64,000 bases of DNA from Candidatus Omnitrophota bacterium. GTDB lineage: Bacteria; Omnitrophota; Omnitrophia; Omnitrophales; JACROU01. Positions 1,532-55,600 of this stretch are shown piece after piece (the first letter of the stretch is position 1; the number at the start of each line of letters is the position of its first letter). The DNA lies in the NCBI GenBank assembly GCA_016214265.1, contig JACROU010000037.1, positions 3,859 through 67,858 of the forward strand, written 5' to 3'. The notes beneath the pieces were generated by a model. It saw nothing but the letters and a program-made list of their open reading frames with translations. It did not search any database and had not been told where the DNA came from. Position numbers and translations under genes: made by a program.

Positions 1532-1968
1532 TTTGTGATTTATGTCATCATGAATTTAACGAGTCCGAAGCTCGAGGCGCATGTTCCGGCTGTGGCACGC
1601 AAAAAAGCTGTGGCGGCGTTCGCTGTCCCCGCTGTTACTACGAGATGGTTTCAGCGCCCGGATGGATTTCTGGAATTGCGAGATTTTTTAATCGAAAATC
1701 TGGGCGTGAGGCTGTGTGTGAAGAGAAGGAATTTTCAGAAAAATCCGGAGTTTCTCTGAATGAATTTGAAGTAAACCGATCCGCCGAAATCGTTGATTTG
1801 CGGACAGTGGACAATCTTATTCTCAGAAAGATTATTGCGATGGATGCGCTTCCCGGGGCAAAGATTACGCTTGTCCAAAAATTCCCCTCTTTGGTTTTCC
1901 GAATCAACGAGAGTTCATTCTCGATCGATAAAGAGCTGGCTTCTGTTATTTGCGTCAAACCGATTTAG
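1528..1968 (+). CDS. FeoA-domain protein with N-terminal Cys4 zinc-ribbon
   Basis: ATG at 1528 overlaps the feoB stop. N-terminus has CDLC...CSGCG...CPRC. C-terminus (IVDLRTVDNLILRKIIAMDALPGAKITLVQKFPSLVFRINESSFSIDKELASVI) matches the FeoA SH3-like fold. The longer 1390 ORF is an in-frame upstream extension overlapping feoB. Confidence 0.6.
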   Translation: MICDLCHHEFNESEARGACSGCGTQKSCGGVRCPRCYYEMVSAPGWISGIARFFNRKSGREAVCEEKEFSEKSGVSLNEFEVNRSAEIVDLRTVDNLILRKIIAMDALPGAKITLVQKFPSLVFRINESSFSIDKELASVICVKPI

Positions 1969-2843
1969 TCTCGAGCCAGCATGTTAATGAAAAGTTGAGC
2001 GGGGTGTGTCGGCACTCTTTCGTTTAAGGTGATAATGCCGATCGGTCGTGAAAGCTGCAAATCCGAAATCCGAATAGATGTTATCAGTCCCTGAGCCACT
2101 TCTTTTTCAACGGCTTTGCGGGGCACAATCGATATTCCTAATCCTACTTCCACAGCTTTTTTTATCGTGTCAATATTATCGTTGGTCATTCGAATGAAAA
2201 CTTTTACTTCCTTGCTATTTAGCGCTTCGTTGATGGCCTCCCTTGTGGGAATTCCTTCGTCAAAAGTGATGAAGTTTTCGTTATTAATTTCCTGCAATTT
2301 GATGCTGCGTTTTTTTGCCAGGTGGTGTTTGGGAGGGGCAATTAAAATAAGGTTATCTTTGCCGGCAGGGGTGATCTTGATTCTCGGTCGGTTCTTAGGA
2401 TAAGCAACAATGCCGAAATCAATTTTTTCTTGAAGAATAAGATCATAGATCAAGTCCGATCTACTGTATTGAAGATGAATGTAGATATCCGGATAGGCGC
2501 GAATAAATTTTTTCAGATTGGCAGCCAGCTCGTAGATGCCGATGCTATAGACTGTGGCAATCTTGACATTTCCCTTTAGTGTTTTGGTTTTGTTGGAGAG
2601 GTGGGATTTTAAATTTCCGATCCGGGTTAAGAGGTCTTCGACGTAAGGAAGCAAAAATTCCCCTTCCTTGGTCAGACTTACTTTTCGCGGCGCGCGGTCA
2701 AACAGCCGGCATCCCAGCAGCTCCTCAAGATTTTTAATGTGCGAGCTGACGGACGGCTGTGTCAGAAAATTCAATTTTCCGACTTTGGCAAAATTTTTCT
2801 CGTAGGCAATATCTTTGAATATTTTCAAGCTGAGGGTGTTCAT
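1965..2843 (-). CDS. LysR-family transcriptional regulator
   Basis: N-terminal HTH (LKIFKDIAYEKNFAKVGKLNFLTQPSVSSHIKNLEELLGCRLFDR) plus LysR substrate-binding domain. Divergent from the cytochrome cluster. Confidence 0.85.
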   Translation of the reverse strand: MNTLSLKIFKDIAYEKNFAKVGKLNFLTQPSVSSHIKNLEELLGCRLFDRAPRKVSLTKEGEFLLPYVEDLLTRIGNLKSHLSNKTKTLKGNVKIATVYSIGIYELAANLKKFIRAYPDIYIHLQYSRSDLIYDLILQEKIDFGIVAYPKNRPRIKITPAGKDNLILIAPPKHHLAKKRSIKLQEINNENFITFDEGIPTREAINEALNSKEVKVFIRMTNDNIDTIKKAVEVGLGISIVPRKAVEKEVAQGLITSIRISDLQLSRPIGIITLNERVPTHPAQLFINMLARD

Positions 2844-3036
2844 AGATAGAAATAATTTATCATTGCAATATTAAAAATCAATTATTTTTATCGATTGTAT
2901 CGTGCGATTATAATTTCCAGTGACACACGTTCATTCATTAAGCTATAATGATTTTCAGTCGTAACTATAAAACATCATTCAGTTTGAGCGGGTTTGTTAT
3001 TTTCTTCCTTTTCTCTTCAATAATTTCGGAGTTCGT
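2844..3036. promoter_or_regulatory. Divergent AT-rich promoter region between the LysR gene and the cytochrome cluster; contains dyad ATCAAT-N7-ATCGAT (T-N11-A-like) around 2876-2897
   Basis: AT-rich 190-bp intergenic with inverted repeat. Typical LysR autoregulatory/target architecture. Confidence 0.3.
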
Positions 3037-3828
3037 ATGGCAAAACAATTTTGTTGGGTGAAAGCGATTGGAGCATTTGCCTCAGTCGTTATTTTTTTGT
3101 TCGTAGTATCCGGCCAAGCGATGGGCGCCGAGCAGAAGAAAGAGAAATCTTACCCCTTCGAAGGTTTCGTTGGCGTTAAGGGATCAAAATATGTTGGTCA
3201 GGAAACCTGTGAAATGTGTCACGAAAAAGAAGCCCGCGAGTTTAAACTTTCCACCCATTCAAGACTCAATATCGAACATGGTCAGACAAAGGCGCAAGGA
3301 TGCGAAATGTGCCACGGCCCCGGAAGCATTCACGTGGATGCGGGCGGAGGCAAAGGAAAAGGGATTATCAACCCAAGAAAAAATCCTGAAGTTTGTTTTT
3401 CCTGCCATATGGATAAGAAAATGGAATTTCGCCTGCCGTTTCATCATCCCGTTTTGGAGGGTAAAATGGGGTGCGCGGACTGTCATTCCGCGCACGGTGC
3501 CGAAGTCAAGCCTTGGTCTGCGACGACGCTTAGCGGTATGAATGAAGCCTGCTATAAATGCCATAAGATTCAACGCGGTCCTTTTGTGTGGGAGCATGAG
3601 GCTCTTCGTGAAGGCTGCACCGCTTGTCATAAGGTTCATGGTTCGGTTAATGACAAGATGCTGCTTATTCGCGATAGCAATTTGTGCTTAAGATGTCATA
3701 CCCAAATGGATTTTCCAGTGATTGGAAGATCTAACCATGCGGCCCGAATGCCTCAAGGAACTTGCTTTAGTGCAGGGTGTCATACAGCGGTTCATGGATC
3801 GAATTTTGATGATCATCTGCGATATTAG
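3037..3828 (+). CDS. Octaheme c-type cytochrome, secreted (signal peptide)
   Basis: Seven CxxCH (CEMCH, CEMCH, CFSCH, CADCH, CYKCH, CTACH, CLRCH) plus one CxxxCH (CFSAGCH) in 263 aa. N-terminal signal/anchor. Confidence 0.85.
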   Translation: MAKQFCWVKAIGAFASVVIFLFVVSGQAMGAEQKKEKSYPFEGFVGVKGSKYVGQETCEMCHEKEAREFKLSTHSRLNIEHGQTKAQGCEMCHGPGSIHVDAGGGKGKGIINPRKNPEVCFSCHMDKKMEFRLPFHHPVLEGKMGCADCHSAHGAEVKPWSATTLSGMNEACYKCHKIQRGPFVWEHEALREGCTACHKVHGSVNDKMLLIRDSNLCLRCHTQMDFPVIGRSNHAARMPQGTCFSAGCHTAVHGSNFDDHLRY

Positions 3829-3837
3829 AGGGTTACG

Positions 3838-5919
3838 ATGAAAACTACTTTACGCATAGTGCTGGCAGAAATTTTAATCGGTGGATTGTTACTCGTACCT
3901 GGAACCGTTTCTGCGGGAGAGACCGGAACGGAAACAGCGCCTGTTACCTTTGCGCCAGTTCCAGTGCAATATGCTTTTGTGGATGGCGATATGGCCAAGT
4001 TCCAAAACCATAAATGGATGAAGGGTGATTATAACGCAGGGGCGGATAATTCTACGGCGGAGTATAAACTACCCAAAGGCGTAACGTTGTCGATGGAAGG
4101 AAGTGGTCTCGTCCCTCAAAACGATTTTGGTGCGAAAACATCTATTACCAAAGAAAACTTGGGATTTGTCAATTTTGATTTTAAACAATTCCGCCGGTAT
4201 TACGACACGACGGGCGGCGTTTACGACCGATTTGCGACGCTCAGGCACAATGAATTAGACAAAGGTCTTCACATGGATATCGGTCATTTGGGAGTGGATA
4301 CCGGAATTACTATCAAAAATTGGCCTCACTTGGGTTTCGAATACGATCGGGATTACCGGCTTGGCGCCAAATCGCGTCTTTCGTGGGGCGGTGTTACCGA
4401 AGGGGCTATTCTCCGCTACATTTTTCCTTCCTATCAGGAGATCAATCAAAGCGTGGATACTTTTGCTATCAAAGCGGATCACACCATCGGTGGATATAAA
4501 CTAAAAGCAGATCAACGATGGGAACTATTCCGGGCGGATACTTCGCGATGGGAGCAGTGGATGGCAACGACCGGAGTGGCTGCGGATAATAAAAGGCGCC
4601 TGCAGCATCAAGAACCCAGTGCTGATCTGATGACCACAACGGTTGGAGCTGAGCGGTGGTTCAAGAAAGACAAAGTGTTTGTGTCTTCCGGGTATCGTTA
4701 TGCTCAAATGAAAAATAAAGAAATCGAATCCATATTTGAATTTGATGCCGCGGGGAGGCTTTTCAATAACGCCAATGCCAAAAGTGCCCGTAATTCTATT
4801 GCTCACAATAATATGGAGGATAACAGCTGGGTTGGAAATGCTATGTGGACTCCCTGGCATTCTTTGAGTTTGATTGCCAAATTGAAAGGCGACGTGTACC
4901 GAAATTTGGGATTTTCCACAAATCCCATGGATACAAATGCCGGTGTTCCGAATGGAGGAATCGATACTACGGAGATCAGCAATCTCAGCAATAAGATTGG
5001 AAGCGTTGCCGAATCGGTATCCGTGCGTTTTACCGGAATTCCCCATACAGCGCTTTACTCAGAAATGGAATTGCAGGAAATTGGGAATCGACGATATGAA
5101 AATCGTTTGAGCGTTGCTGGTCAGGCGGCTACTAGTGCCAATGAAAACTATACCAATTTGGTAAACATAAATAGTTATCGCCAGATGTGGACTATTGGCG
5201 GAAATTTTGCGCCTTGGTATTTTGTAAATACCACGGCAGATGTTCGCATTCGCCGGGAAAACGATGATTACGATTACATCAAAAACTCACCGCCGACGGG
5301 CGGCGAGCTTTTTCGCGCGTTCTTTGATTCATTAAAAATCAACACTAACGAATTCAAAACCCGGACTACCTTAAGATTGGTGAAGTGGCTGCAGCCAGCC
5401 TTCCGTTATCAGTTTCAAGAAAAGGATTTTTATGCGTTGCCGTATCATGAGCCGGTTTATGTGACGACGCGTACGATATCAAATACTTATACATATGACC
5501 TGATGTATCAGCCATTGGCAGATTTAATGACAATGATTTCATTTTCCAGGCAAACAATTAAAACTGTAACGCCTGCTCATAATTCAGCCCGAACAATGGG
5601 AGTTCCTCCAACTTATAACACCAATGTAAACATGTGGATGTTCAGTGCGGATTACGCCTTAAGGCCCGATTTGATTCTTACGGGTAGCCTTGATTTTTCA
5701 AGAGCGCCTAATTTCAATGATTATTCCACAATCGGTTTACCGCTTGGTGTTGACTACAATCAGATAGATTTAAATTTGGGCGTGCGCTGGGCTTTGAATA
5801 AACGGATTACGTTGGAACCGAAGTACTCCTATTACCATTACAATCCGAATCAAAACGTGGAGTATGGTAAATATGATGCTCATGTAATTTCGCTTGAAAT
5901 GCTCCTACCCTGGGGTTGA
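3838..5919 (+). CDS. Predicted outer-membrane beta-barrel protein (porin-like), candidate partner of the preceding multiheme cytochrome
   Basis: Signal peptide (LLVPGTVSAGE). 693 aa with no Cys, rich in Y/T/N/G and alternating amphipathic beta-strand patterns. Starts 10 nt after the cytochrome gene. Confidence 0.5.
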   Translation: MKTTLRIVLAEILIGGLLLVPGTVSAGETGTETAPVTFAPVPVQYAFVDGDMAKFQNHKWMKGDYNAGADNSTAEYKLPKGVTLSMEGSGLVPQNDFGAKTSITKENLGFVNFDFKQFRRYYDTTGGVYDRFATLRHNELDKGLHMDIGHLGVDTGITIKNWPHLGFEYDRDYRLGAKSRLSWGGVTEGAILRYIFPSYQEINQSVDTFAIKADHTIGGYKLKADQRWELFRADTSRWEQWMATTGVAADNKRRLQHQEPSADLMTTTVGAERWFKKDKVFVSSGYRYAQMKNKEIESIFEFDAAGRLFNNANAKSARNSIAHNNMEDNSWVGNAMWTPWHSLSLIAKLKGDVYRNLGFSTNPMDTNAGVPNGGIDTTEISNLSNKIGSVAESVSVRFTGIPHTALYSEMELQEIGNRRYENRLSVAGQAATSANENYTNLVNINSYRQMWTIGGNFAPWYFVNTTADVRIRRENDDYDYIKNSPPTGGELFRAFFDSLKINTNEFKTRTTLRLVKWLQPAFRYQFQEKDFYALPYHEPVYVTTRTISNTYTYDLMYQPLADLMTMISFSRQTIKTVTPAHNSARTMGVPPTYNTNVNMWMFSADYALRPDLILTGSLDFSRAPNFNDYSTIGLPLGVDYNQIDLNLGVRWALNKRITLEPKYSYYHYNPNQNVEYGKYDAHVISLEMLLPWG

Positions 5920-5931
5920 TAATCACACCCC

Positions 5932-7725
5932 ATGAAGCCGAAATCGCAGGGCGTAAGTCCTTACTATATCTTGAGAAGCTTTCTTTTTTCCTTCTTTAAT
6001 TTCTTTGCCTCTTTAAAGCTCGCCGTGTTTCTTCTTGTCGTGTTGGGAGTGACTTTAGCTGCCGGTACTTTTATTGAATCTGCTTCAGGAACTAAAGCCG
6101 CGCAGCAGATGGTTTACCATACCGCTGCGTTTAGTTTGCTTCTTGGCGTGTTGGCGATGAATCTGGCTTTCGCCGCTTTGGCACGGCTACCCTGGCAGAA
6201 AAAGCATGTGGGATTTGTGATGACTCATGCTGGGATTATCATGATTATCTTTGGATCGTGGATGACCACTCGATTCGCGATTGACGGCCAGCTGGCGTTA
6301 GCGGAAGGGGAAAGAGGAAACCAGATTTCCGTTGATGTCCCGCTCCTCCAAATATTTAATTCCCAAACCAAGCAAAGCATTGAAGTTCCTTTTAAACTTC
6401 CACCACGGCAATGGGAGGGTAATAAACCATTTATTTTGCATGACTTTGATGATGTTGCGGTTAATCTTTTAGCTTTTTTCCCGCATTCCAAACCGGTTGA
6501 GAAAATTGTTCCCAAGGCGGGCGGTTCTTCTGCCGTAGAGTTTGATATTTTTAATGAAAATATGCGTATGGGCGGCAGGCTTCTGGAAGAACAAGGGAAA
6601 GACAGTATGGATTTGGGGCCGGCAGTGGTTCGGTTTTCTTCCCAGGAAATTCCTTTGCCTACGAAAAAATCTGCTTCTTCCGACTCTTTGGGTGATTTGA
6701 TATTCAATTATCAGGGCAAACAAAGCAGGGTGTCCGTATCGAAGGCGCTCACCAAAGAAGTTTCTATTCCCAACACACCCTTCAAAATAAAAATTAATCG
6801 TTATTTGTCTCACGCGATTGTTGAAAATAATCAGCTGGTTGACCGGGGTGAAGCGGCCGTGAATCCGGCCTGTGAATTTGTGATTCTGGGAAAGAAAACG
6901 GAAGAAAAACATACCGCCTTCGCTTTTTTTCCGGATTTTCCGACGCTTCACGGTCGCGCGCCATCACAGACCGGATTGAAAATTCATTTTGAGGCTTCCG
7001 GGTTGGAACAGGGCGCTTCTGCAAACGAACTTCGGATTATCAAGAATGCTTCCGGAAAACTTTTCTATCAGACAAAAACTCAACAAACTGTGATTCCGCC
7101 GGTCCCGGTGGAAGTGGGGAAGGAATACGCTACAGGCTGGATGCATCTGAAATTTCTGGTTAAAACATTTTTTCCTGAAGCGGAACTTAAGTCTTATTTT
7201 GAACCACTGCCTCTTTCACCCCAGGAGAAAAATCCACGGCCGGTAGTTTTGATGGGATTTCAGAAAAACGGCCAGGAAGCGAAACTTTGGCTTCAGCGCG
7301 GAGATCATCAATTTGTTTTTTCCGAAAGTGCACCGCTTCATGTCATTTACGGCGAGAAAAATATTCCTCTTGGATTTGATATTGAGCTTAAAAAATTTAT
7401 GATCGATTATTATCCCGGTTCAGAGCGGCCCGCTGCGTTTAAAAGCGCTGTCAAGTTAATCGACCCCTCAAAAGGCGTTGACCGAGAGGTTGAGATCAGC
7501 ATGAATAAGCCGCTTTCTTACCGTGGATTCAAGGTTTTTCAGTCGGGATATCAGTTGAGCGAAGGCCGGCCCAAAGTGTCCATTTTCTCCGTGGGGCGTG
7601 ACCCGGGCATTCCGGTAAAATATGCGGGCAGCATTGTCATGATTCTTGGCGTTTTATTTATGTTTTATTTGAAAAGATTTTCAAGCAGCAAGCCTCTCTA
7701 TTCAAACGAAAGTGAGAAAAAATGA
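5932..7725 (+). CDS. ccsB: Cytochrome c biogenesis protein CcsB/ResB (System II)
   Basis: N-terminal TM helices, LKLAVFLL...IESASGT..AAQQMVYHT motif, large periplasmic domain, C-terminal TM. Confidence 0.8.
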   Translation: MKPKSQGVSPYYILRSFLFSFFNFFASLKLAVFLLVVLGVTLAAGTFIESASGTKAAQQMVYHTAAFSLLLGVLAMNLAFAALARLPWQKKHVGFVMTHAGIIMIIFGSWMTTRFAIDGQLALAEGERGNQISVDVPLLQIFNSQTKQSIEVPFKLPPRQWEGNKPFILHDFDDVAVNLLAFFPHSKPVEKIVPKAGGSSAVEFDIFNENMRMGGRLLEEQGKDSMDLGPAVVRFSSQEIPLPTKKSASSDSLGDLIFNYQGKQSRVSVSKALTKEVSIPNTPFKIKINRYLSHAIVENNQLVDRGEAAVNPACEFVILGKKTEEKHTAFAFFPDFPTLHGRAPSQTGLKIHFEASGLEQGASANELRIIKNASGKLFYQTKTQQTVIPPVPVEVGKEYATGWMHLKFLVKTFFPEAELKSYFEPLPLSPQEKNPRPVVLMGFQKNGQEAKLWLQRGDHQFVFSESAPLHVIYGEKNIPLGFDIELKKFMIDYYPGSERPAAFKSAVKLIDPSKGVDREVEISMNKPLSYRGFKVFQSGYQLSEGRPKVSIFSVGRDPGIPVKYAGSIVMILGVLFMFYLKRFSSSKPLYSNESEKK

Positions 7726-9341
7726 AAATTTTTCGAGCTCTTTTGCTATTGATTCCTGTTTGTTTCTATTCTGCTCCTGCGATTTGCGGGTCTCACAGCA
7801 ATTTTGATATTAAGTCGCTCGAAAAGATGGCGGTGCAAAGCGGGGGGCGAATCAAGCCTTTCAGCAGTTTCTCAAAAGAAGTGGTTTTGTATGTAACAGG
7901 AAAAGAACGTTTCGCAGGTAAAGATGCCAACACCCTGCTTTTGGAATGGATCGCAAAACCTGAGCAGTGGGAAGCGCAGCCTCTGATTCCGGTTTCCAAT
8001 CAGGCATTAAGGACTTTTTTGGGAATTCCTGCTGAAACGAAAAGAGTCAGCCCGCATTTTCTTTCTTCGAGCCGTGTTTTTCTCGACAGCGTGGCGCAAA
8101 TCGATGCCAAACAATCGCAAGGGGAAGTGTTAAGCACGGTTGATAAAGCGGAGATTGAGCTTTATCAAAAAATGAGTCTGTTTTATGCCTCGTGCGAAGG
8201 AAAAAACTGGTCTGTTATTCCTAATCCATCTTCCCCTCATGACAAGTGGCTCTCCATCGATATGATTAAAACAGATCAGAGAATTGGCAGTCTGGCTGTT
8301 CCGCTCAATACGATGCTGGAAAGTTACCGCTCAAATGATCCGGTGAAATTCAAACAGGCGAGCGAAGAGTTTATCAATCGGTTGGGATTACAGAATTCTT
8401 TTACGCTGGAAATTCAATACAATCACTTAAGGCCTTTCGGATGGGCTTGGCATTTGTATTTGCTGGGATTTTTGATTTTTCTGATAAATTTTGTTTTAAA
8501 GAAATCGTTTTTATCATGGATTGGGGTGGGCAGCGTTATTTTGGGATTTCTGCTGCACACTTATGGATTTGTTCTGCGGTGCATTATTTCGGGCAGGCCT
8601 CCTGTTAGCAACATGTACGAGTCTGTTATCTGGGTTTCGTGGGCGGCGGTTTTGTTTGCGGTTATCCTTTTCTTCGTTTACCGCTCAACGTATGTCACTC
8701 TGGCAGCGTCGGCGATTGCTGCAGTCGGCTTAATTCTGGCAGATAGTTTGCCGGCGGTTTTGGATCCTTCGATCTCGCCTCTGGAACCGGTTTTAAGAAA
8801 TAATTTTTGGCTGACAATTCATGTTCTGACGATCACGTTAAGTTACGGCGCTTTTGCTCTGGCTCTAGCTATTGCACATATTTCTCTCCTCATGCATGTG
8901 TTTCAGACGAAAAATGAAAATCTTCTTCGCATTATCACCGAATTTCTTTACCGGGCGTTGCAAATCGGTGTTGTTCTTTTGGCGGCGGGAACTATTTTGG
9001 GTGGTGTTTGGGCAAATTACTCTTGGGGCCGGTTTTGGGGCTGGGATCCCAAAGAAACTTGGGCCTTAATCGCTCTTCTCGGATATTTGGCTATTCTTCA
9101 TTGCCGTTATGTCGGCTGGATCGGTCCGTTTGGTCTTGCTGTTGGCGCCTCAGTTGCATTTCTGGGCGTTCTGATGGCATGGTACGGTGTCAACTTTGTT
9201 CTTGCCGCGGGACTTCACAGTTATGGTTTTGCCGGCGGCGGACTTCCTTATGTCGGCGCTTTCGTCATCGCCGATTTATTGCTGGTGGCCTTACTCTCTT
9301 TTGTTTATTGGAAAAAGACGCAAATCAAAACTTCTCACTAA
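7722..9341 (+). CDS. ccsA: Cytochrome c biogenesis protein CcsA/ResC with ~240-aa N-terminal periplasmic extension
   Basis: Trp-rich heme-handling motif WGRFWGWDPKETWAL and multi-TM CcsA core. Start overlaps the ccsB stop. Confidence 0.8.
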   Translation: MKIFRALLLLIPVCFYSAPAICGSHSNFDIKSLEKMAVQSGGRIKPFSSFSKEVVLYVTGKERFAGKDANTLLLEWIAKPEQWEAQPLIPVSNQALRTFLGIPAETKRVSPHFLSSSRVFLDSVAQIDAKQSQGEVLSTVDKAEIELYQKMSLFYASCEGKNWSVIPNPSSPHDKWLSIDMIKTDQRIGSLAVPLNTMLESYRSNDPVKFKQASEEFINRLGLQNSFTLEIQYNHLRPFGWAWHLYLLGFLIFLINFVLKKSFLSWIGVGSVILGFLLHTYGFVLRCIISGRPPVSNMYESVIWVSWAAVLFAVILFFVYRSTYVTLAASAIAAVGLILADSLPAVLDPSISPLEPVLRNNFWLTIHVLTITLSYGAFALALAIAHISLLMHVFQTKNENLLRIITEFLYRALQIGVVLLAAGTILGGVWANYSWGRFWGWDPKETWALIALLGYLAILHCRYVGWIGPFGLAVGASVAFLGVLMAWYGVNFVLAAGLHSYGFAGGGLPYVGAFVIADLLLVALLSFVYWKKTQIKTSH

Positions 9342-9363
9342 AATCCAAGGTGATGTTTTGCCT

Positions 9364-10269
9364 ATGAGATGTATTGCTCCAATATCGGCACGAATTAGCG
9401 TTGTTGCCGCTTTTTTGCTTCTGCTTTTCGTCGGCGTACAAAAATTTGTGTGGGCGGTAGAAGCGCCTAAAAATAATTCGTGCGTCACGTGTCACATGGA
9501 TATTTGGGAAGAAACGAAAGACAGCATTCACTCTAGTGAGGGGATTACCTGCAACAATTGTCACGGCGGTGATCCGGCCAAAAAAGAAAAAGAACTCGCC
9601 AAAGCACCCGCCACGGGTTATATCGGAATTCCTGACAAAAAACAGATCGTGAATATGTGCGGTACCTGTCACGCCAACGTTGAGGTGATGAATTTTTATG
9701 GTATTCGTACCGATCAGCTGGCCCGGTATAAAACCAGTATGCATGGAAAAAAACTATTAATTGACGGTGATACACACGTTGCTGCTTGTGCGGATTGCCA
9801 TGGCTATCACAATATTCTTGGTATTGGCGACCCGCAAAGTTCCGTTTATCCTACAAATGTTCCAAAGACATGCAATAAGTGTCATGGCAATGAGAAATTG
9901 ATGGGGCGTTACCATCTTCCGTCAGACATCTTCAAACAATATGAAAATAGTGCCCACGGCGTTGCTTTACTCGTGAAAAACGATCTTTCTTCGGCAAACT
10001 GTGTTAGCTGTCACGGAAGTCACGGAGCCATGCCTCCTGGAGTGAAAGAAGTCAGTGACACTTGCGGCAAATGTCACATTAACGAAAAAAAATTCTTTTT
10101 GACCAGCGAACACGCCAAGTTGGCTGAAGGCAGCAAGTTTTCAGAATGTATATCCTGCCATGGTTTTCATGGCATTCAACACCCCACAATTCAATTGTTC
10201 AGTACGGCTTGCTCGAAATGTCATAATGTGAAAAGCTTGGCGGCGCAAAGAGCGCTTTCAATGCAATAA
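9364..10269 (+). CDS. Nonaheme c-type cytochrome, N-terminally membrane-anchored
   Basis: Nine CxxCH motifs (CVTCH, CNNCH, CGTCH, CADCH, CNKCH, CVSCH, CGKCH, CISCH, CSKCH). Likely ATG at 9364 (MRCIAPISARISVVAAFLLLLFVG). The 9187 ORF start is an upstream extension overlapping ccsA. Confidence 0.8.
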   Translation: MRCIAPISARISVVAAFLLLLFVGVQKFVWAVEAPKNNSCVTCHMDIWEETKDSIHSSEGITCNNCHGGDPAKKEKELAKAPATGYIGIPDKKQIVNMCGTCHANVEVMNFYGIRTDQLARYKTSMHGKKLLIDGDTHVAACADCHGYHNILGIGDPQSSVYPTNVPKTCNKCHGNEKLMGRYHLPSDIFKQYENSAHGVALLVKNDLSSANCVSCHGSHGAMPPGVKEVSDTCGKCHINEKKFFLTSEHAKLAEGSKFSECISCHGFHGIQHPTIQLFSTACSKCHNVKSLAAQRALSMQ

Positions 10270-10272
10270 CTG

Positions 10273-10638
10273 TTGTTAAAATCCCAAACGGAAGTTAGCG
10301 AGACAAAAGCCGTAGTGAAAGCAGCGGCGAATCAGGGTCTTTTTGTTGATGAAGAAAAAGCCGCTTTTGATGAAGCCAATACCAGTTTGATTGAGATGGG
10401 AATAACTCAGCATTCGCTTTCTGTCGGTGAGTTGTCAAAGCTTTCAAATAAAGTTGAAGCTACAACCGAACAAATCCGAAAAGGTATAAATCATAAGTAT
10501 CAAGGTTTGAAGTGGCGGAAAATTGCGCTTATTATTGTGTGGATTTTTGTCCTATTGATGGTTGTGGCGTTGTGGACTAAATATAAACGTTTAAAGTTTA
10601 TCAGGGATGAGAGAAAGAAAAAACACGACGATGAGTGA
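10273..10638 (+). CDS. Small hypothetical protein with C-terminal TM helix
   Basis: ORF has a non-ATG start, a single hydrophobic C-terminal segment (IALIIVWIFVLLMVVALW), and sits between the cytochrome and Rieske genes. Start uncertain. Confidence 0.3.
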   Translation: MLKSQTEVSETKAVVKAAANQGLFVDEEKAAFDEANTSLIEMGITQHSLSVGELSKLSNKVEATTEQIRKGINHKYQGLKWRKIALIIVWIFVLLMVVALWTKYKRLKFIRDERKKKHDDE

Positions 10639-11101
10639 TTCAGGTAAAGATCAAAATCTGGAGAAGCCTTTGTACGAAAAGTCTTTGTCGAGACGCGATT
10701 TTATCAGCTGGATTATCAAGGGCGGATTATTTATCACGTTTTTGAGCATGCTATTGCCCGCATTGGAATATATTTGGCCGGTGACTCGCCGTGGTCCAGT
10801 GGGCGGGGCTAATGATGTTGGTCGCGCCGATGACATTCCCGTTGGCAGCGCAAAAAAAGTAGATGTGTCCGGGACTCCGCTCATTTTAATTCACACACCG
10901 CAAGGATTTAATGCCTTCTCGGCGATTTGCACTCACCTTGGTTGTCTGGTGGGGTGGGATTCTCAGAAGCAATTAATTGCCTGCCCCTGTCATGCGGGAT
11001 TATTTGATACAACAGGCAGAGTGGTGGCGGGCCCGCCGCCAAGACCTTTGGCTTCTTATCCGGTGAATGTTGTGGATGGAAAAATTTTTATTAAACTCTA
11101 A
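10607..11101 (+). CDS. petA: Rieske [2Fe-2S] iron-sulfur subunit with twin-arginine signal (likely true start at 10631)
   Basis: SRRDFI Tat motif plus TM. Rieske boxes CTHLGC and CPCHAG. Confidence 0.85.
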   Translation: MRERKNTTMSDSGKDQNLEKPLYEKSLSRRDFISWIIKGGLFITFLSMLLPALEYIWPVTRRGPVGGANDVGRADDIPVGSAKKVDVSGTPLILIHTPQGFNAFSAICTHLGCLVGWDSQKQLIACPCHAGLFDTTGRVVAGPPPRPLASYPVNVVDGKIFIKL

Positions 11102-11124
11102 AACTCATTTTCAAAAAAATCCTC

Positions 11125-12294
11125 ATGATCAAACAATTTATTCAAAAGTGGTTTGAAGAGCGGTTTGACGTAGAGCAAATCAAACAGCCGCTAAAAAAGC
11201 AGATTGAGAAACCGCTTCCCCCGAACGTGGGTTGGCTTCACACACTGGGCAGTATGTCGTTGATCCTTTTTGTCAGTCAAGTCCTCACAGGGATTTTGCT
11301 GCTAATTTACTATCGTCCAACGGTCAACGAGGCGTTTGAAAGTGTGAAGTTCATCATGTCCAAAGCCTACATGGGATGGCTGTACCGGCAAATTCATGCC
11401 TGGGGCTCCAATCTCATGATCTTGATCGTATTTCTGCATATGCTGCGGACTTATATCATGGGATCTTTCAAGAAACCACGCGAGTTAACCTGGGTTTTTG
11501 GCGTTCTGCTTTTCTTTATAACACTTACTTTTGGTTTTACCGGATATCTTCTTCCCTGGAATCAGTTGTCATATTGGGCAACAACGGTGGGGACGGAACT
11601 GGCTGGGGGGGTTCCCTGGATTGGCTTGTTTATTAAAACCTTGCTGAGGGGAGGCCAGTCGGTGGGCGGTGAGACGCTTTCCCGTTTCTTTGTTGTGCAT
11701 GTCATCATATTGCCTTGGGCGCTTTTTTTCCTGATCATCATTCACATTTTTCTTGTTCGCTTTCAGGGAATTTCAACCATGGAGCCGGTTGGTGAGGAAA
11801 AGAAAGTTAAGCCCGATGAAGGAATTCCATTCTATCCCCATCATGCATTAAAAGAAGGCGTTGTGTTTTATCTTTTAATGGCCGTCCTGATTACGCTATC
11901 GATTTTAGTTCCTTTTGAGTTGGGAGAAAAAGCTGATCCCCTCCAAACGCCGGCTGGTATCAAACCCGAATGGTATTTTTTGCCCATGTATCAGGTGCTG
12001 AAATATTTCCCCAAAATGATAGGTATCTTTGTCGTTGGTTTGGCGCCGCTATTTTTGCTGTTCTGGGCTTTTTTGGATAACAGTAAACAACGCAATCCTC
12101 TTAAAAGACCCTTTTCGATAACGTTTTGCATTCTTGTCCTTATATCTCTGGTTGTGTTCGGAGTGATGGGGGCGTATTCAGAAACTAAAGTAACTTTATT
12201 TGGCAAAACTTACGATGTGGATGTGTACGGCGTTCCTCATCTGGCCGCCGCAAATATTATCGATCAAATTAATCCCGAGAAATCAACGACATGA
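11125..12294 (+). CDS. petB: Cytochrome b (fused b6/subunit IV-like, 389 aa)
   Basis: Canonical cytochrome b motifs (YMGWLYRQIHAWGSNLMILIVFLHMLRTY; LPWNQLSYWATTV). Multi-TM. Confidence 0.85.
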   Translation: MIKQFIQKWFEERFDVEQIKQPLKKQIEKPLPPNVGWLHTLGSMSLILFVSQVLTGILLLIYYRPTVNEAFESVKFIMSKAYMGWLYRQIHAWGSNLMILIVFLHMLRTYIMGSFKKPRELTWVFGVLLFFITLTFGFTGYLLPWNQLSYWATTVGTELAGGVPWIGLFIKTLLRGGQSVGGETLSRFFVVHVIILPWALFFLIIIHIFLVRFQGISTMEPVGEEKKVKPDEGIPFYPHHALKEGVVFYLLMAVLITLSILVPFELGEKADPLQTPAGIKPEWYFLPMYQVLKYFPKMIGIFVVGLAPLFLLFWAFLDNSKQRNPLKRPFSITFCILVLISLVVFGVMGAYSETKVTLFGKTYDVDVYGVPHLAAANIIDQINPEKSTT

Positions 12295-13790
12295 GTGAAG
12301 AAAAGAAACGAAATATTTATTTTCGAAACTGGATGAGTGTTATCGGCGGAATTCTCTCCGTAATTTTGTTTGCCGTTATTTTATTTCTGTTCGTTTTAGA
12401 CTTCCTTGATAAAGGGTTGAACCCTTATTTGGGAATTTTTACCTACGTTGTTGTGCCGGTTTTTTTGGTGATCAGTCTTTTGATGATTCCCATCGGCGCC
12501 TGGCGCGAGCGTGCACGATTTAAAAAACTTGGCCATGTTCAGCAATTTCCCCAGATTGATTTTAATAATCCCACACACCAGAAGATAGCATTTGCGGCTT
12601 GGGGCGTAGTTACGCTGTTTCTTCTTTTTTCAATGGTGGGTGCGTACCGGGCTTACGAGTTTTCGGAGTCTGTCACTTTTTGCGGGCGCACCTGTCATGG
12701 CGTGATGGGACCGGAATATATTGCGTACAAAAATTCCCCGCACGCGCATGTAGCCTGTGTGGAATGCCACATTGGGCCTGGGATTGACTGGTATATCCGT
12801 TCAAAACCTTCCGGAGCCCGTCAGGCTTATTTAACTCTTACAAACCGTTTTAATCGTCCTATTCCAACACCGATAAAGACGCTTCGCCCTGCTCGCGAAA
12901 CTTGTGAGCATTGCCATTGGCCCGAGCAGTTTTACGGGGATAAAGAAGTAAATCATAAATACTTTCTGCCTGATGAAACGAACACAGAATGGAAGGCTCG
13001 ATTACTTGTCCATGTGGGCGGTGCCAAGCCTCGTTATGGGCAGGGTGAAGGCATTCACTGGCATATGAAAGTTAATAATCAGGTTTATTACATCGCCACG
13101 GATGAGAAGAAAGAAAACATTCCATGGGTGCGGCAGATCAATCCTGATGGTAAAGAAGAGATATTTGTTGAAGAAAAATCCGGATACAGCGCTTCGAATC
13201 CGCCAAAAGGTGAAATCAAATTAATGGATTGTATGGATTGTCACAATCGCCCAAGCCATCACTTCAAAGCGCCATCGGAGTCCGTAAATGAAGCGATGGG
13301 CTTTGGACAGATTGACAGTTCACTGCCTTATATAAAACGTGAGGCGGTGAAAGCCTTGGTGGGGAATTACAAATCGAACTCAGAAGCAAAAGCCGAAATT
13401 CGCAAACGTCTCGAGACTTTTTACCGGGAAAAATACCCCGCAATTTGGGAGTCGAAAGGTAAAGAATTGCAGAGCAGTATTGACCGGGTGATTAATATTT
13501 ATAATGTCAACTTTTTCCCAGAAATGAAAACGTCATGGAAGGTGCATCCCAACAATATTGGGCATTTCATCTCTACGGGATGTTTTCGCTGCCACGATGA
13601 CAAACACAAAACTGCGGAAGGTAAAGTGATCCGGAAAGATTGTGCTATGTGTCATGCGATTATTGAGCAGGGCAAACCGGAGTTACTGGAAACTGCTGTG
13701 GCCGGGGTTGAATTCAAGCATCCCGAGGATATTGGCGAGGAATGGAAAGAGACGAAATGTTCTGATTGCCATACTGGCGAACTGGCTTAG
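12291..13790 (+). CDS. Membrane-anchored multiheme c-type cytochrome (about 7 hemes), c-type subunit of the Rieske/cyt b complex
   Basis: Two N-terminal TM helices. CxxCH x6 (CVECH, CEHCH, CMDCH, CFRCH, CAMCH, CSDCH) plus CGRTCH. Start overlaps the cyt b stop. Confidence 0.8.
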   Translation: MSEEKKRNIYFRNWMSVIGGILSVILFAVILFLFVLDFLDKGLNPYLGIFTYVVVPVFLVISLLMIPIGAWRERARFKKLGHVQQFPQIDFNNPTHQKIAFAAWGVVTLFLLFSMVGAYRAYEFSESVTFCGRTCHGVMGPEYIAYKNSPHAHVACVECHIGPGIDWYIRSKPSGARQAYLTLTNRFNRPIPTPIKTLRPARETCEHCHWPEQFYGDKEVNHKYFLPDETNTEWKARLLVHVGGAKPRYGQGEGIHWHMKVNNQVYYIATDEKKENIPWVRQINPDGKEEIFVEEKSGYSASNPPKGEIKLMDCMDCHNRPSHHFKAPSESVNEAMGFGQIDSSLPYIKREAVKALVGNYKSNSEAKAEIRKRLETFYREKYPAIWESKGKELQSSIDRVINIYNVNFFPEMKTSWKVHPNNIGHFISTGCFRCHDDKHKTAEGKVIRKDCAMCHAIIEQGKPELLETAVAGVEFKHPEDIGEEWKETKCSDCHTGELA

Positions 13791-13798
13791 CGCAGTTA

Positions 13799-13814
13799 TG
13801 TGACCTTCGTCACA
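13799..13814. promoter_or_regulatory. CRP-family-like binding site TGTGACCTTCGTCACA (TGTGA-N6-TCACA)
   Basis: Perfect CRP consensus half-sites. Extended 24-mer matches the site at 53012 at 21/24 positions, differing only within the spacer (shared ATGTGA plus CGTCACAGTTTT). About 150 bp upstream of the tetraheme cytochrome gene. Confidence 0.4.
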
Positions 13815-13967
13815 GTTTTAAACCGGGTTCTCTCGCTATAATTCGCTCTTGTCTTTGGAATTAGAGAACATTCCCATCGAATAGATTATTCGGTCGCACG
13901 TCTTATTAATTACAAAAGTTTTCGTTTTTCTATCAAAGTAGGCGAAGCGCAAACAAGGAGGATAGCG

Positions 13968-14522
13968 ATGAAGTCAGGTTATTTGTTGCCACAATTATTA
14001 AGGAGCTTTCTGGTTTTAACTGTTTTTGCTTTTTTGGCCACCCCCGTAGCTTTTGCCGCTGATCATGAATATGTCGGGGCGGCAAAATGCGGAATTTGCC
14101 ATAAGAAACCAGAGCAGGGCGAACAATATCGTATTTGGCAGGAATCAAAACATGCCAAGGCTTTTGAAGCACTGGGAACTCCCGAGGCAAAAGAAGTCGG
14201 CGCTAAACTGGGAATTGATGATCCTCAAAAGAGCGGAAAATGTTTGAAATGTCATTCCACGGCTTATGGACATACAGAACAAGTTGTTACGGATGCGATC
14301 CCGGTTGAAGAAGGCGTTTCTTGCGAAACATGCCATGGTGCCGGAAAAGATTATATGAAAAAGAGCGTCATGGAAGATGTTAACGCCGCGAAAGAAGCGG
14401 GATTAATTATTCCGGATGAGGCGACTTGCACAAAATGCCACAATTCGGAGAGCCCGACGTTCAAGCCGTTTGATTACAAAGAACGTTATGAGAAAATTAA
14501 ACATCCTAAACCCAATAAATAA
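13968..14522 (+). CDS. Periplasmic tetraheme c-type cytochrome
   Basis: Signal peptide. Four CxxCH (CGICH, CLKCH, CETCH, CTKCH). Strong RBS AAGGAGG upstream. Confidence 0.8.
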   Translation: MKSGYLLPQLLRSFLVLTVFAFLATPVAFAADHEYVGAAKCGICHKKPEQGEQYRIWQESKHAKAFEALGTPEAKEVGAKLGIDDPQKSGKCLKCHSTAYGHTEQVVTDAIPVEEGVSCETCHGAGKDYMKKSVMEDVNAAKEAGLIIPDEATCTKCHNSESPTFKPFDYKERYEKIKHPKPNK

Positions 14523-14704
14523 AATTTAACTAACGATACGTTTTCCTCCGTAAACGCCTCCTGGCGAAGAGTACAGAAATGAAAAGACTTCGTTTCTGCA
14601 AACTTCGTTCAGGGGGCGTTTTTATTTGTGATTGTGTAACCCGTGTCATTGGCACAAGTTGTAATCCTGGGGTACTATTTAGGTGGATTGAGTGGGAGGA
14701 TGGC

Positions 14705-15628
14705 ATGACAGAAGAAATGGAGTATTTTCAAAAATACCGTTCGCTCTATGAAGAGGCGGTGTTGCGGTATGTTTGTACCCGCTGCATTGACTTTGGAAAT
14801 GATGGCGTTTGTCATTCTGAAGATCCAAAAGGGTGTGCGGTATTCCGCTATTTGCCCGAATTGATAGCAATTGCAAGACGTATTCACGAACCCAGTATTG
14901 TCCCTTACGTTGATGCCGTGCGTCAAACTGTGTGTGTGCATTGCCGGGCCTTAACCCCTGAGGGGATGTGCCCATTGCGTGCCAAATTAGATTGCGGATT
15001 GGACCGCTACTTAATTCTTGTTATCGAAGCAATGGGGAAAGTGGATGCAATTTTGAAGAATGAGGAAAAAGACAGAGATAGATTGAGTAATGAATCGAAA
15101 AACATCACGTCACTTTTGATCCAACGTTGCCGGAGGGTGTTGGATAGAATTTTTTCATTGGATGAAATGCTGAGAGGATTTTGTTATTCAGGAGAGACGG
15201 CTTATCAGGAAAATTTAATACAAATGAATGAAGTTTCAAAATTTTTCTCAAGATTTTTCTCAAGAGAATGGAACAAGCATATGACGATTGAAAAGGAAAT
15301 ATTGTTTCCGTTTGCGATTGCACATTTGCCGCAAATAAGGCCGGCTATAGATTTTCTGGAATCAAAACACGCTGAATACAGAAAAAAACTTCAAGAATTA
15401 AGAACGCGATATGATGATTTTAAATGGGCAGTAGGTGATGAAGGGAGGAAAAAAGCGGTAGAAAAATTTCAAAATCTCGGAATTTCTTTGGCCAAGCTAT
15501 TCAATGAGTACATTGAGATTGAAGCAAAGAATGTGTATAAAGTGTTGGATCGCGAGCTTTCAGAAGATGACAAATTGGAGCTTATGAGAAAAATTTATCT
15601 CCGCAATGTCAGTCGTAGAGCGGCATAA
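14705..15628 (+). CDS. Cys-rich N-terminal domain / hemerythrin-like C-terminal domain protein
   Basis: GGAGG RBS before the ATG at 14705. N-terminus has CTRC...C...CVHC...C. C-terminus resembles a hemerythrin HHE cation-binding domain and is paralogous to 52196..52720 (shared EILFP[FY] and YKV[LI]DREL). Confidence 0.4.
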   Translation: MTEEMEYFQKYRSLYEEAVLRYVCTRCIDFGNDGVCHSEDPKGCAVFRYLPELIAIARRIHEPSIVPYVDAVRQTVCVHCRALTPEGMCPLRAKLDCGLDRYLILVIEAMGKVDAILKNEEKDRDRLSNESKNITSLLIQRCRRVLDRIFSLDEMLRGFCYSGETAYQENLIQMNEVSKFFSRFFSREWNKHMTIEKEILFPFAIAHLPQIRPAIDFLESKHAEYRKKLQELRTRYDDFKWAVGDEGRKKAVEKFQNLGISLAKLFNEYIEIEAKNVYKVLDRELSEDDKLELMRKIYLRNVSRRAA

Positions 15629-52720: not shown

Positions 52721-52738
52721 CCGGAAAAACCCAAATCC

Positions 52739-52981: not shown

Positions 52982-53011
52982 TTTTCCCTCCATATTTATA
53001 TTCTGACATTA

Positions 53012-55597: not shown

Positions 55598-55600
55598 TTT

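Follow-up and report, generated by a model that had tools for sequence, protein, structure and literature searches.

A predicted outer-membrane electron conduit associated with quinone-pool modules in an uncultured Omnitrophota bacterium

Results

Layout of the cluster

The window analysed here, a stretch of 64,000 nucleotides, comes from the metagenome-assembled genome of an uncultured Candidatus Omnitrophota bacterium, and the locus is known from its genes alone. Between positions 3037 and 14522 all cluster genes lie on the forward strand (Table 1), with intergenic gaps of, in order, 9, 12, -4, 22, 3, -32, 23, -4 and 177 bp. The first-pass annotation of this DNA had described ten co-directional, tightly packed genes; orientation and packing hold, but the tenth "gene" is the detached tail of the nonahaem cytochrome. 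The same annotation's estimate of about 28 haem c sites agrees with our motif count of 28 (26 CxxCH, one CX4CH and one CX3CH), with 8 motifs in the octahaem protein, 9 in the nonahaem protein, 7 in a 499-aa protein and 4 in the tetrahaem protein. Since just three CxxCH motifs (in ORFs of at least 60 aa) occur in the remaining ~50 kb of the window, this density does not reflect chance. Neither the cluster nor the rest of the window has a gene for a lipoprotein or extracellular cytochrome. The gene unit probably extends beyond 14522 to 15628, thereby gaining a gene for a Cys-rich/hemerythrin protein.

Table 1. Features of the cluster and its immediate surroundings (positions in the window).
Feature	Position	Strand	Evidence and remarks
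LysR-family regulator, divergent from the cluster	1965..2843	-	PF00126 and PF03466
Best sigma-70-like promoter match	2920..2949	+	GTGACA-18-TATAAT, ~90 bp 5' of the octahaem gene
Periplasmic octahaem c-type cytochrome	3037..3828	+	MtrA/DmsE-family homolog minus one dihaem unit
Outer-membrane ~26-strand beta-barrel, putative sheath for the octahaem protein	3838..5919	+	Predicted MtrB-like fold
CcsB/ResB, System II cytochrome c biogenesis	5932..7725	+	PF05140, E 1.2e-22; 4 transmembrane segments
CcsA, System II haem-handling subunit	7722..9341	+	PF01578, TIGR03144, WGRFWGWD motif
Nonahaem c-type cytochrome, TAA-truncated	9364..10269	+	9 CxxCH, signal peptide
Detached C-terminal linker and transmembrane anchor of the nonahaem protein	10273..10638	+	Same reading frame
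Rieske 2Fe-2S subunit	10607..11101	+	PF00355; SRRDF Tat motif; CTHLGC and CPCH boxes
Cytochrome b (b6 fused to subunit IV)	11125..12294	+	PF00033, PF13631, PF00032; 7 transmembrane helices
ImcH-family heptahaem inner-membrane cytochrome, NapC/NirT-related, quinol-interacting	12291..13790	+	3 transmembrane helices
Soluble periplasmic tetrahaem c554-like cytochrome, candidate shuttle	13968..14522	+	PF13435, E 2.6e-18
Cytoplasmic Cys-rich domain fused to a hemerythrin domain	14579..15628	+	Hemerythrin PF01814

The octahaem cytochrome and the barrel

The octahaem protein has a signal peptide, seven CxxCH motifs and a CFSAGCH (CX4CH) site, the latter recurring in the related locus L004. It matches MtrA (PDB 6r2q_A) with an E-value of 8.5e-33, scores 166.7 bits against TIGR03508 (under the cut-off of 192.2) and is 60-74% identical to its Omnitrophota relatives. 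The 693-aa protein encoded directly downstream carries a signal peptide and no cysteines; its sequence matched no Pfam or NCBIfam family and neither the MtrB/PioB models nor PDB sequences. Its AlphaFold2 model (pLDDT 79.8) is all-beta, with ~26 long strands and with neither a plug domain nor an N-terminal extension. The best structural match is MtrB (6r2q_B), the sole structure aligning to nearly the full length of the barrel (556 residues), followed by TonB-dependent transporters. The connection to MtrB is carried by the predicted fold, together with weak PF11854 matches among remote relatives. Some relatives carry a monohaem cytochrome domain fused to the barrel, and the barrel-family profile reaches Verrucomicrobiota proteins (E ~1e-65). 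The outer-membrane barrel that had been proposed here is upheld: rather than alpha-helical or cytoplasmic, the protein is secreted, with an MtrB-like predicted fold, and encoded next to an MtrA homolog.

Maturation genes and the inner-membrane modules

A ResB domain and a CcsA with an intact WGRFWGWD motif confirm that the cluster has System II maturation machinery of its own. The likeliest start of the nonahaem gene is at 9364, and not at the GTG at 9187, and in the window the gene is interrupted by an in-frame TAA (10267-10269). The product of the following open reading frame has a transmembrane segment at residues 84-102 and aligns to the C-termini of the fused nonahaem proteins of L017 and L004; being in the same frame, it was rejected as a separate gene. 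The nonahaem homologs (427-442 aa) end in a C-terminal transmembrane anchor and adjoin the Rieske/cytochrome b genes. The nonahaem protein, anchored in this way in relatives, is likely to take the place of c1/f in the Rieske/cytochrome b complex, and is a better analog than the 499-aa protein. The Rieske and cytochrome b motifs are intact, the latter protein having His pairs spaced 13 and 14 residues (b6-like) and a PEWY motif. Partial NCBIfam matches in the cluster are to ExtP, ExtQ and ExtM, the ExtP model giving 220.7 bits on cytochrome b (under the cut-off of 290).

The 499-aa protein has a CX3CH motif at 131 and CxxCH motifs at 156, 205, 314, 431, 451 and 490, the corresponding positions in Geobacter GSU3259 (ImcH) being 132, 156, 205, 311, 428, 448 and 486 (PMC6295460 Table S3). 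By its sequence it is a member of the ImcH family, with the same architecture as GSU3259. ImcH of Geobacter is regarded as a quinol oxidase in its own right, and with this architecture the heptahaem protein was rejected as the c subunit of the bc complex. Of the bc-type oxidoreductase originally proposed, the Rieske/cytochrome b6-type pair stands, whereas the ~7-haem c subunit does not.

The tetrahaem protein has a signal peptide but no lipobox, and homologs 62-70% identical to it adjoin cytochrome b in L017, L024 and L025. The Cys-rich/hemerythrin protein is a candidate O2/NO/iron sensor; its Cys-rich domain recurs beside the barrel in L001, L003, L020 and L025, and hemerythrin-like genes lie near the octahaem-barrel pair in L001 and L017.

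Surroundings of the cluster

The LysR gene and, upstream of the cluster, genes for FeoB and FeoA are present in the window as first described, but this setting is not kept: no related locus has a LysR homolog and none conserves the feoAB linkage. The promoter match serves only as a positional hint, since sigma-70-like sites in the region are not more numerous than the shuffled expectation. A clade II NosZ is encoded at 53570-55597, in a nos cluster with no c-type cytochrome or quinol-dehydrogenase genes of its own, which makes it more plausible, as a speculation, that the conduit cluster feeds NosZ.

Conservation in related loci

The octahaem and barrel genes are adjacent in all 19 assessable related loci, the barrel gene always lying 3' of the MtrA homolog, so the homologs are co-localised and not scattered. 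Rieske/cytochrome b genes occur in the sequence flanking the pair in 12 of 18 assessable loci (the other six have the pair without them), usually with nonahaem, ImcH-like, CbcL-like and ResB/CcsA genes; the linked set of Rieske/cytochrome b, multihaem cytochromes and ccsBA proposed from the window therefore recurs. The modules run directly on from one another in the same orientation, with some tens of bases between them, in the window and in L004, L006, L007, L009, L012, L016, L017 and L021, and the association persists in relatives with a barrel only 34-46% identical. In L024 and L025 a two-component/sigma-54 regulator pair separates the conduit and bc modules, and in L025 aa3 oxidase genes lie immediately beside the bc module. 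Other relatives have different partners, either a monohaem c and NirK or NapAB. The type-A relatives have the order octahaem-barrel-monohaem c, with NirK 1.5 kb downstream; in L003, napA starts 15 bp after the barrel gene, and a PhsA/ArrA-like molybdoenzyme that lacks an anchor is encoded upstream together with an Fe-S subunit.

Discussion

A probable conduit coupled to the quinone pool

Because the barrel proved secreted and all-beta and its homologs remain paired with MtrA homologs, the "electron wire" from quinone pool to outer membrane suggested by the first-pass annotation is the best reading of the locus. We consider it probable that this respiratory island encodes an MtrAB/Mto-type trans-envelope conduit coupled to quinone-pool modules. 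On the inner-membrane side, the sequences indicate two such modules, a Rieske/cytochrome b6-type complex and the ImcH-family heptahaem protein. The nonahaem protein would act as the c1/f-type subunit of the former, the tetrahaem cytochrome would shuttle electrons across the periplasm, and the octahaem protein would be threaded into the barrel, like MtrA into MtrB, and expose a haem at the cell surface. In this way extracellular redox substrates would be linked to the quinone pool and to the cytochromes of the periplasm (and plausibly to the clade II NosZ).

As to direction, we lean slightly, and tentatively, towards an MtoAB/PioAB-like uptake of electrons from reductants dissolved outside the cell, Fe(II) for example. 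The lean comes from the lack of a lipoprotein or extracellular cytochrome in the window, the resemblance of the type-A arrangement (with its nearby NirK) to mtoA-mtoB-mtoD, the position of napA in L003 and the nos cluster without electron-supplying genes of its own. Two points speak against uptake: the only process to which ImcH homologs have so far been linked is the oxidation of quinol in Fe(III) reducers (PMC6295460), and the anchor-less molybdoenzyme of L003, with its Fe-S subunit, resembles Shewanella DmsEFAB, an outward system.

These same observations make it possible, though we rather doubt it, that the system works outward only, as in Geobacter dissimilatory reduction, with ImcH, the Rieske/cytochrome b complex or both oxidising quinol, and the nonahaem and tetrahaem cytochromes relaying the electrons to the octahaem-barrel pair, which would pass them to high-potential extracellular acceptors (chelated Fe(III), Mn(IV) oxides, humic quinones). 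Geobacter requires ImcH for its high-potential extracellular acceptors (PMC6295460), CbcL-like genes belong to the same cluster in relatives, the several quinol modules recall the potential-dependent set of Geobacter, humics reduction was proposed for analogous Verrucomicrobia octahaem-porin clusters (PMC5615132), and "metal-reducing cytochromes" have been reported for Omnitrophia (FeGenie-based). Nevertheless, the surface cytochrome needed to reach insoluble minerals is absent, and in relatives the pair is linked to NapAB, NirK and a monohaem c. Moreover, Rieske/cytochrome b complexes feed high-potential chains, and to our knowledge no characterised metal reducer uses one for extracellular electron transfer.

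The absence of Rieske/cytochrome b from one third of the related loci raises another question, since it may be a general complex III merely clustering with the conduit. The nonahaem, Rieske/cytochrome b, ImcH and tetrahaem genes would then make up a general complex III with its cytochrome c pool, on which NosZ and oxidases draw, independent of the octahaem-barrel pair, as the regulator pair in L024 and L025, the aa3 oxidase genes in L025 and the need of the nos cluster for an external donor might suggest. We regard this as unlikely, considering the contiguous modules of the window and eight relatives and their persistence despite barrel divergence; besides, such a pool would still connect both modules functionally. 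Very improbable, finally, is that the barrel is a transporter or porin (for iron or another solute) and not a cytochrome sheath. The TonB-dependent matches and the upstream feoAB genes are what such a role would have in its favour, but the barrel model is plug-less, only MtrB aligns over nearly its whole length, the gene always follows an MtrA homolog, feoAB is not conserved beside it and some relatives bear the fused cytochrome domain.

Comparison with known systems

We compared the predicted conduit with Shewanella MtrCAB (6R2Q), Sideroxydans/Gallionella mtoAB-mtoD-cymA/mtoC and Rhodopseudomonas pioABC. Like MtrAB, MtoAB and PioAB, it pairs an MtrA-homologous periplasmic multihaem cytochrome with a plug-less, 26-strand-type barrel of ~650-700 aa; as in Mto and Pio, an MtrC-like surface cytochrome is absent from the cluster, and Omnitrophota relatives add a small MtoD-like monohaem c or a CbcL/MtoC-family protein (PMC6295460). 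It differs in having eight haems and not ten, the last site being CX4CH, in a barrel undetected by PF11854 or TIGR03509 and with no cysteine/CXXC, in its host phylum and in the in-cis coupling to Rieske/cytochrome b and ImcH; Zhong & Shi 2018 found no mtrAB adjoining imcH.

Complexes of Rieske/cytochrome b with multihaem c subunits replacing monohaem c1/f occur in anammox Planctomycetes and Deltaproteobacteria. The present locus likewise combines a Rieske protein and a b6-type cytochrome b with multihaem cytochromes, but the predicted partners are a C-terminally anchored nonahaem and an ImcH-family protein, and the module is linked to an outer-membrane conduit.

The heptahaem protein shares with Geobacter sulfurreducens ImcH (GSU3259) three transmembrane helices and a CX3CH plus six CxxCH with near-identical spacing, and the relatives' multihaem + dihaem-b protein resembles CbcL (GSU0274); in Geobacter, however, these genes adjoin neither porin-cytochrome nor Rieske/cytochrome b genes, and the Omnitrophota function is a predicted one. 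A LysR gene in divergent orientation is found at Geobacter extHIJKL-type clusters too, and extHIJKL-MNOPQS combines it with an outer-membrane conduit that has no cytochrome at the surface and with a module of b6-like cytochrome b and multihaem proteins (PMC6148476). Its components are not orthologous (ExtI is 21-stranded, ExtK a pentahaem), the Omnitrophota cluster has no rhodanese lipoprotein, and LysR is missing in the Omnitrophota relatives.

Similar by description, and from the same PVC superphylum, are the "novel porin-multihaem cytochrome c" clusters of Verrucomicrobia (Trout Bog/Opitutus genes; He et al. 2017, mSphere, PMC5615132), where a large porin, of 20 or more transmembrane segments, has as its neighbour a periplasmic cytochrome in which eight haem sites are conserved. 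Unlike the Omnitrophota cluster, they sometimes include an extracellular multihaem cytochrome, and Rieske/cytochrome b, ImcH and ccsBA were not reported there. With these clusters described in 2017, ImcH/CbcL homologs listed for Omnitrophica in 2018 and "metal-reducing cytochromes" flagged in Omnitrophia in 2023, calling the locus an undescribed system was too strong; it appears to be a variant of the known Shewanella/Geobacter-type electron-conduit systems rather than a new kind of machine.

Results

Gene content of the cluster

A dense multihaem gene cluster had been proposed at 3037-14522 in the first-pass annotation, and this proposal was confirmed: the genes (see table) are co-directional, with spacings of -32 to +23 bp except for a 177-bp gap preceding the last one, and they hold 28 haem-c motifs (26 CxxCH, plus a CX4CH in the octahaem cytochrome and a CX3CH in a 499-aa protein). 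Since the remainder of the window has just three CxxCH motifs (in ORFs of at least 60 aa), the clustering is real and non-random. The G+C content is even over the cluster region (0.42-0.47). No matches were obtained when the entire window was scanned against Rfam, the promoter and terminator scans did not exceed the shuffled background, no lipobox was found in any of the four cluster cytochromes, and the window has no multihaem ORFs besides those of the cluster.

Features of the cluster and of the downstream nos region (window coordinates)
Feature	Position	Strand	Basis or content
Octahaem cytochrome, secreted	3037-3828	+	Signal peptide, 8 haem sites, MtrA match
Predicted barrel, 693 aa	3838-5919	+	Signal peptide, cysteine-free, AlphaFold2 fold
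ResB/CcsB and CcsA	5932-9341	+	PF05140; PF01578/TIGR03144; WGRFWGWD in CcsA
Nonahaem cytochrome	9364-10269	+	Stops at in-frame TAA 10267-10269
Rieske protein and cytochrome b	10607-12294	+	Tat motif SRRDF, CTHLGC, CPCH; 7 helices, PEWY
ImcH-like protein, 499 aa	12291-13790	+	3 N-terminal transmembrane helices, CX3CH and 6 CxxCH, PF03264, NrfH-like matches
Tetrahaem c554-like cytochrome, soluble	13968-14522	+	Sequence match
Cys-rich domain fused to hemerythrin domain	14579-15628		Cytoplasmic ~110-aa domain, 9 cysteines, no Pfam match
Clade II (Sec-type) nos cluster	52196-60355		Hemerythrin, Rrf2, NosZ, 920-aa NosD-NosF fusion, NosY, NosL, CarboxypepD_reg protein

The System II (CcsBA) maturation machinery is formed by a ResB/CcsB membrane protein and a CcsA with the WWD motif, the latter being a divergent member of its family, because its TIGR03144 score (156.9) lies below the cut-off (187.6). 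We extended the unit to 15628 because the Cys-rich domain, which may be a sensor of redox state, O2, NO or iron, recurs beside the barrel in related loci of other genomes and contigs (L001 12536-12916, L003 2615-2977, L020 1690-2034 and L025 20011-20313). Separate hemerythrin-like genes are found near the octahaem-barrel pair in L001 and L017, and also near nosZ in the window (52196-52720).

The nos cluster encodes no c-type cytochrome, no quinol dehydrogenase and no NosGH/NosB-type electron-donor proteins. Besides the cluster proteins, the window has a single further c-type cytochrome, a dihaem class I protein (PF00034/PF13442) whose ORF, at the end of the window, is incomplete (63213-63998); it might be a donor to NosZ or to an oxidase.

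The octahaem cytochrome and the barrel

The octahaem cytochrome matches MtrA of the solved Shewanella Mtr complex (6r2q_A, E 8.5e-33) and scores 166.7 bits (E 6.5e-49) against TIGR03508, the MtrA/DmsE/MtoA decahaem family, without reaching the curated cut-off of 192.2; at the sequence level its homology to MtrA is nevertheless clear. It has eight haem sites (seven CxxCH and CFSAGCH) versus the ten of that family, and haems 3-4 align to MtrA haems 3-4 and also to 5-6, which indicates that one dihaem unit has been lost. The protein has a signal peptide without a lipobox and its gene lies 9 bp from that of the barrel, as expected for a secreted soluble cytochrome encoded beside its barrel.

The 693-aa protein is identical (100%) to the 'hypothetical protein HZC17_03995' of a Candidatus Omnitrophica MAG. 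It gave no match at E <= 0.01 in Pfam and NCBIfam (including PF11854 and TIGR03509, the MtrB/PioB models) and none among the PDB sequences, either as a single sequence or as a 16-sequence family profile, and for this reason its identity came through fold comparison only. The AlphaFold2 model (16 homologs, pLDDT 79.8) is all-beta and plug-less, with approximately 26 long strands, a predicted size large enough to sheathe a multihaem cytochrome, as in MtrB/PioB. Its top Foldseek match is MtrB (6r2q_B, E 7e-11, TM 0.60/0.63), with all others below 0.45. Together with the signal peptide, the all-beta model rules out an alpha-helical or cytoplasmic protein, in agreement with the barrel initially suggested. 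A TonB-dependent transporter was also considered, and rejected given the missing plug and the shorter length of the alignment.

A word-index search retrieved 17 barrel relatives, suggesting a tiny family; this was corrected by an exhaustive profile search with hits in 857 representative clusters, mostly without annotation, of which 342 reached E <= 1e-30. The named members include Verrucomicrobiota and a Deltaproteobacteria-labelled MAG. About one in six of the best 149 representatives (25) carry a fused PSCyt1 monohaem domain, and weak PF11854 (MtrB_PioB) matches occur in remote relatives only (P0286, P0307), among these PSCyt1-fused members; judged by sequence, they are the sole bridge to MtrB/PioB at that level.

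The PSCyt1-fused proteins (~770-915 aa) combine one, sometimes two, PSCyt1 ('Planctomycete cytochrome c') domains with a whole MtrB-size barrel. Examples are P0224, P0240, P0253, P0265, P0307 and others, as well as L023 8001-10487, the named ones being from Verrucomicrobiota (Roseibacillus, Verrucomicrobiales). At 7245-7913 in L023, just 5' of the fused barrel, there is a homolog of the octahaem (48% identity) that had not been called as a gene. On another contig, the MAG of the 693-aa protein has a second barrel paralog (P0288, HZC17_05790), 905 aa long and extended at the N-terminus by ~260 aa. In L026 (3885-7592), a near-identical contig represented by a 90%-cluster mate, the gene after this paralog encodes a 325-aa MtrA-like multihaem cytochrome; the order of the two is thus reversed, and they lie among glycolysis genes.

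Gene order in related loci

The related loci were drawn from one genome-collection scan and from exact-protein look-ups. The octahaem gene is immediately 5' of the barrel gene in all the loci with upstream sequence (19/19), and a Rieske/cytochrome b module lies inside the available flank in 12 of the 18 assessable loci (type B), so the possibility that the homologs are scattered fails and the co-localisation anticipated from the window holds in relatives. Octahaem identity amounts to 60-74% for the Omnitrophota loci (48-54% in the two outliers, L023 and L024), the barrel identity being lower across related loci (31-46%). Type B loci usually run from the octahaem and barrel genes through those for Rieske, cytochrome b, anchored nonahaem, ImcH-like and CbcL-like proteins to ResB and CcsA further on; the closest relatives (L017, L024 and L025) have nonahaem, Rieske, cytochrome b, tetrahaem and ImcH, with the nonahaem ahead of the Rieske, like the window. 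The remaining loci, of type A (L001 8633-14576, L005, L010, L013, L015, L018 and L022), encode a histidine-rich Aq_1264_TM membrane protein upstream of the pair and, on its downstream side, a monohaem cytochrome c of 115 aa with the motif CILCH.

Respiratory enzymes are also encoded near the pair. L001 has a copper nitrite reductase (NirK; TIGR02376, 324 bits) 1.5 kb downstream. In L003, a NapA gene (994 bits) begins 15 bp past the barrel gene and is followed by one for a four-haem NapB-like protein, while the upstream genes encode a PhsA/ArrA-like molybdoenzyme without an anchor, a 4Fe-4S subunit and a NarJ-like chaperone; the pair lies there between two respiratory enzyme sets (4815-14915).

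The linkage to a LysR regulator and to feoAB, on which the early description had drawn, is particular to the window, given that neither is conserved beside the cluster in related loci. The FeoA-domain protein downstream of FeoB (1528-1968) has an N-terminal Cys/His-rich extension (CDLCHH...CSGCG...CPRC), which looks like a zinc-ribbon or metal-sensing addition. A gene for glutamyl-tRNA reductase (HemA, haem biosynthesis) is found just 5' of the cluster in L004 (7736-8794), L017 (7256-8296) and L024 (1474-2838), and is absent in the window.

Inner-membrane and periplasmic cytochromes

The Rieske/cytochrome b module has a Tat signal, both Rieske boxes, two bis-His haem sites (His91/His105 and His192/His207, with the b6-type spacing of 13 and 14 residues) and PEWY at 281. 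No monohaem cytochrome c1 or f, the usual third core subunit, is encoded in the cluster.

The 499-aa protein, earlier regarded as a simple c subunit with about seven haems, has instead the architecture of ImcH. Its helices (17-35, 48-66 and 99-117) and haem motifs (CX3CH at 131; CxxCH at 156, 205, 314, 431, 451 and 490) follow those reported for Geobacter ImcH GSU3259 (507 aa; helices 13-35, 45-67 and 100-122; motifs at 132, 156, 205, 311, 428, 448 and 486; PMC6295460), so that size, helices, motif spacing and the NapC/NirT-like region all agree, as they do with the ImcH homologs that Zhong & Shi 2018 tabulated for Omnitrophica (PMC6295460). Both this match and the anchored nonahaem beside cytochrome b in relatives led us to reject it as the primary c1 replacement.

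Nonahaem homologs have a C-terminal anchor and adjoin Rieske/cytochrome b in every relative, which is why the nonahaem appears to be the best c1/f analog, with the ImcH-like protein as the other candidate. In the window, its reading frame is continued after the stop codon by a 121-aa ORF (10273-10638), which aligns with the C-terminal coiled-coil and transmembrane anchor of fused homologs (L004 and L017, 427-433 aa) and, being in frame, was not accepted as a small membrane protein in its own right. When compared with these homologs, both halves are still well conserved, and this indicates that the split stems from a recent nonsense mutation, from an assembly error or from read-through.

Discussion

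Based on component homology, the fold predicted for the barrel and the conserved gene linkage, we consider that the cluster is probably a trans-envelope electron conduit coupled to the quinone pool. In this arrangement, the octahaem would be inserted in the barrel, as MtrA is in MtrB (the invariant gene adjacency suggests this), the tetrahaem would ferry electrons across the periplasm, electrons would leave the Rieske/cytochrome b complex through the anchored nonahaem as its output subunit, a second entry to, or an exit from, the quinone pool might be provided by ImcH, and CcsBA would mature all 28 haem sites. Of the initial interpretation (an undescribed electron wire from the quinone pool to the outer membrane), the conduit is retained, while the heptahaem c subunit and the LysR/feoAB linkage are not.

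If the cluster is such a conduit, the direction of electron flow has to be considered. Uptake of electrons, which we place close to an even chance, is suggested by the window encoding no surface cytochrome, by a chain that is Rieske-based and hence high-potential, by a nos cluster that brings neither a cytochrome nor a quinol dehydrogenase, by NapAB and NirK adjoining the pair in relatives, and by the octahaem, barrel and monohaem c of the type A loci, an arrangement similar to mtoA-mtoB-mtoD. Export, to which we assign a clearly less than even chance, is favoured by membership of the ImcH and CbcL families, by the humic reduction proposed for the Verrucomicrobia clusters (PMC5615132) and by the layout of L003, similar to that of Shewanella dmsEFAB. 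One elaboration of the inward conduit, rather unlikely in its full form, is that dissolved Fe(II), mineral surfaces or even partner cells supply electrons which pass through the octahaem-barrel pore to periplasmic N-oxide reductases, with Rieske/cytochrome b and ImcH exchanging with the quinone pool, possibly in reverse; the recipients would be the clade II NosZ in the window and the NapAB and NirK directly beside the pair in relatives.

The uncultured phylum Omnitrophota is common in groundwater, and its cells are mostly ultra-small and in part host-dependent; were the inward reading true, those of groundwater would be lithotrophic or 'electron-parasitic' partial denitrifiers. More generally, if the conduit reading is right, MtrAB-type extracellular electron transfer extends to Omnitrophota, the barrel family escapes the standard MtrB/PioB models and the iron-gene annotators, and the cluster offers candidates for how high-potential respiratory chains reach extracellular substrates. 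That the pair has different partners in different relatives (NapAB, NirK, molybdoenzymes, monohaem c) suggests a conduit of modular make-up, which would bear on the coupling of the iron and nitrogen cycles in aquifers.

In our literature search, the Omnitrophota cluster itself was not described in any paper. FeGenie-type 'metal-reducing cytochromes' have been reported in 10 of 23 Omnitrophia species (Seymour et al. 2023, PMC10066038), and ImcH and CbcL homologs from Omnitrophica appear in the survey of Zhong & Shi 2018, which did not find mtrAB/mtoAB adjoining imcH (PMC6295460); the present cluster, if correctly read, would join an ImcH homolog, Rieske/cytochrome b and an outer-membrane conduit, a combination reported absent there. 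The 'novel porin-MHC' clusters that He et al. 2017 reported from Verrucomicrobia have an eight-haem periplasmic cytochrome and a porin of at least 20 transmembrane segments (PMC5615132). A search from a Verrucomicrobiota member of the barrel family returned PSCyt1-fused relatives only and no named Opitutus protein, and the link to these published clusters is indirect.

Among known conduits, the pair is likened in function to MtrAB, MtoAB and PioAB; because the curated sequence criteria of both the MtrA and the MtrB families failed, it is a divergent relative, and not a member, of these families. The Geobacter Pcc/Ext conduits (OmaB-OmbB-OmcB, ExtABCD, ExtHIJKL) encode, together with the porin and its periplasmic cytochrome, an outer-surface lipoprotein (a cytochrome or a rhodanese), whereas the window cluster has none; like the window cluster, the extHIJKL-type ones have a LysR gene that is divergent and, next to them, a module with a b-type cytochrome. 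Cyc2 has an N-terminal monohaem domain fused to its barrel, in contrast to the window barrel, which lacks any cysteine, and it is the PSCyt1-fused subfamily that forms a giant analog of this cytochrome-porin. Every component of the cluster is of a known kind; the particular combination and the divergent barrel family set it apart as a variant not described before.
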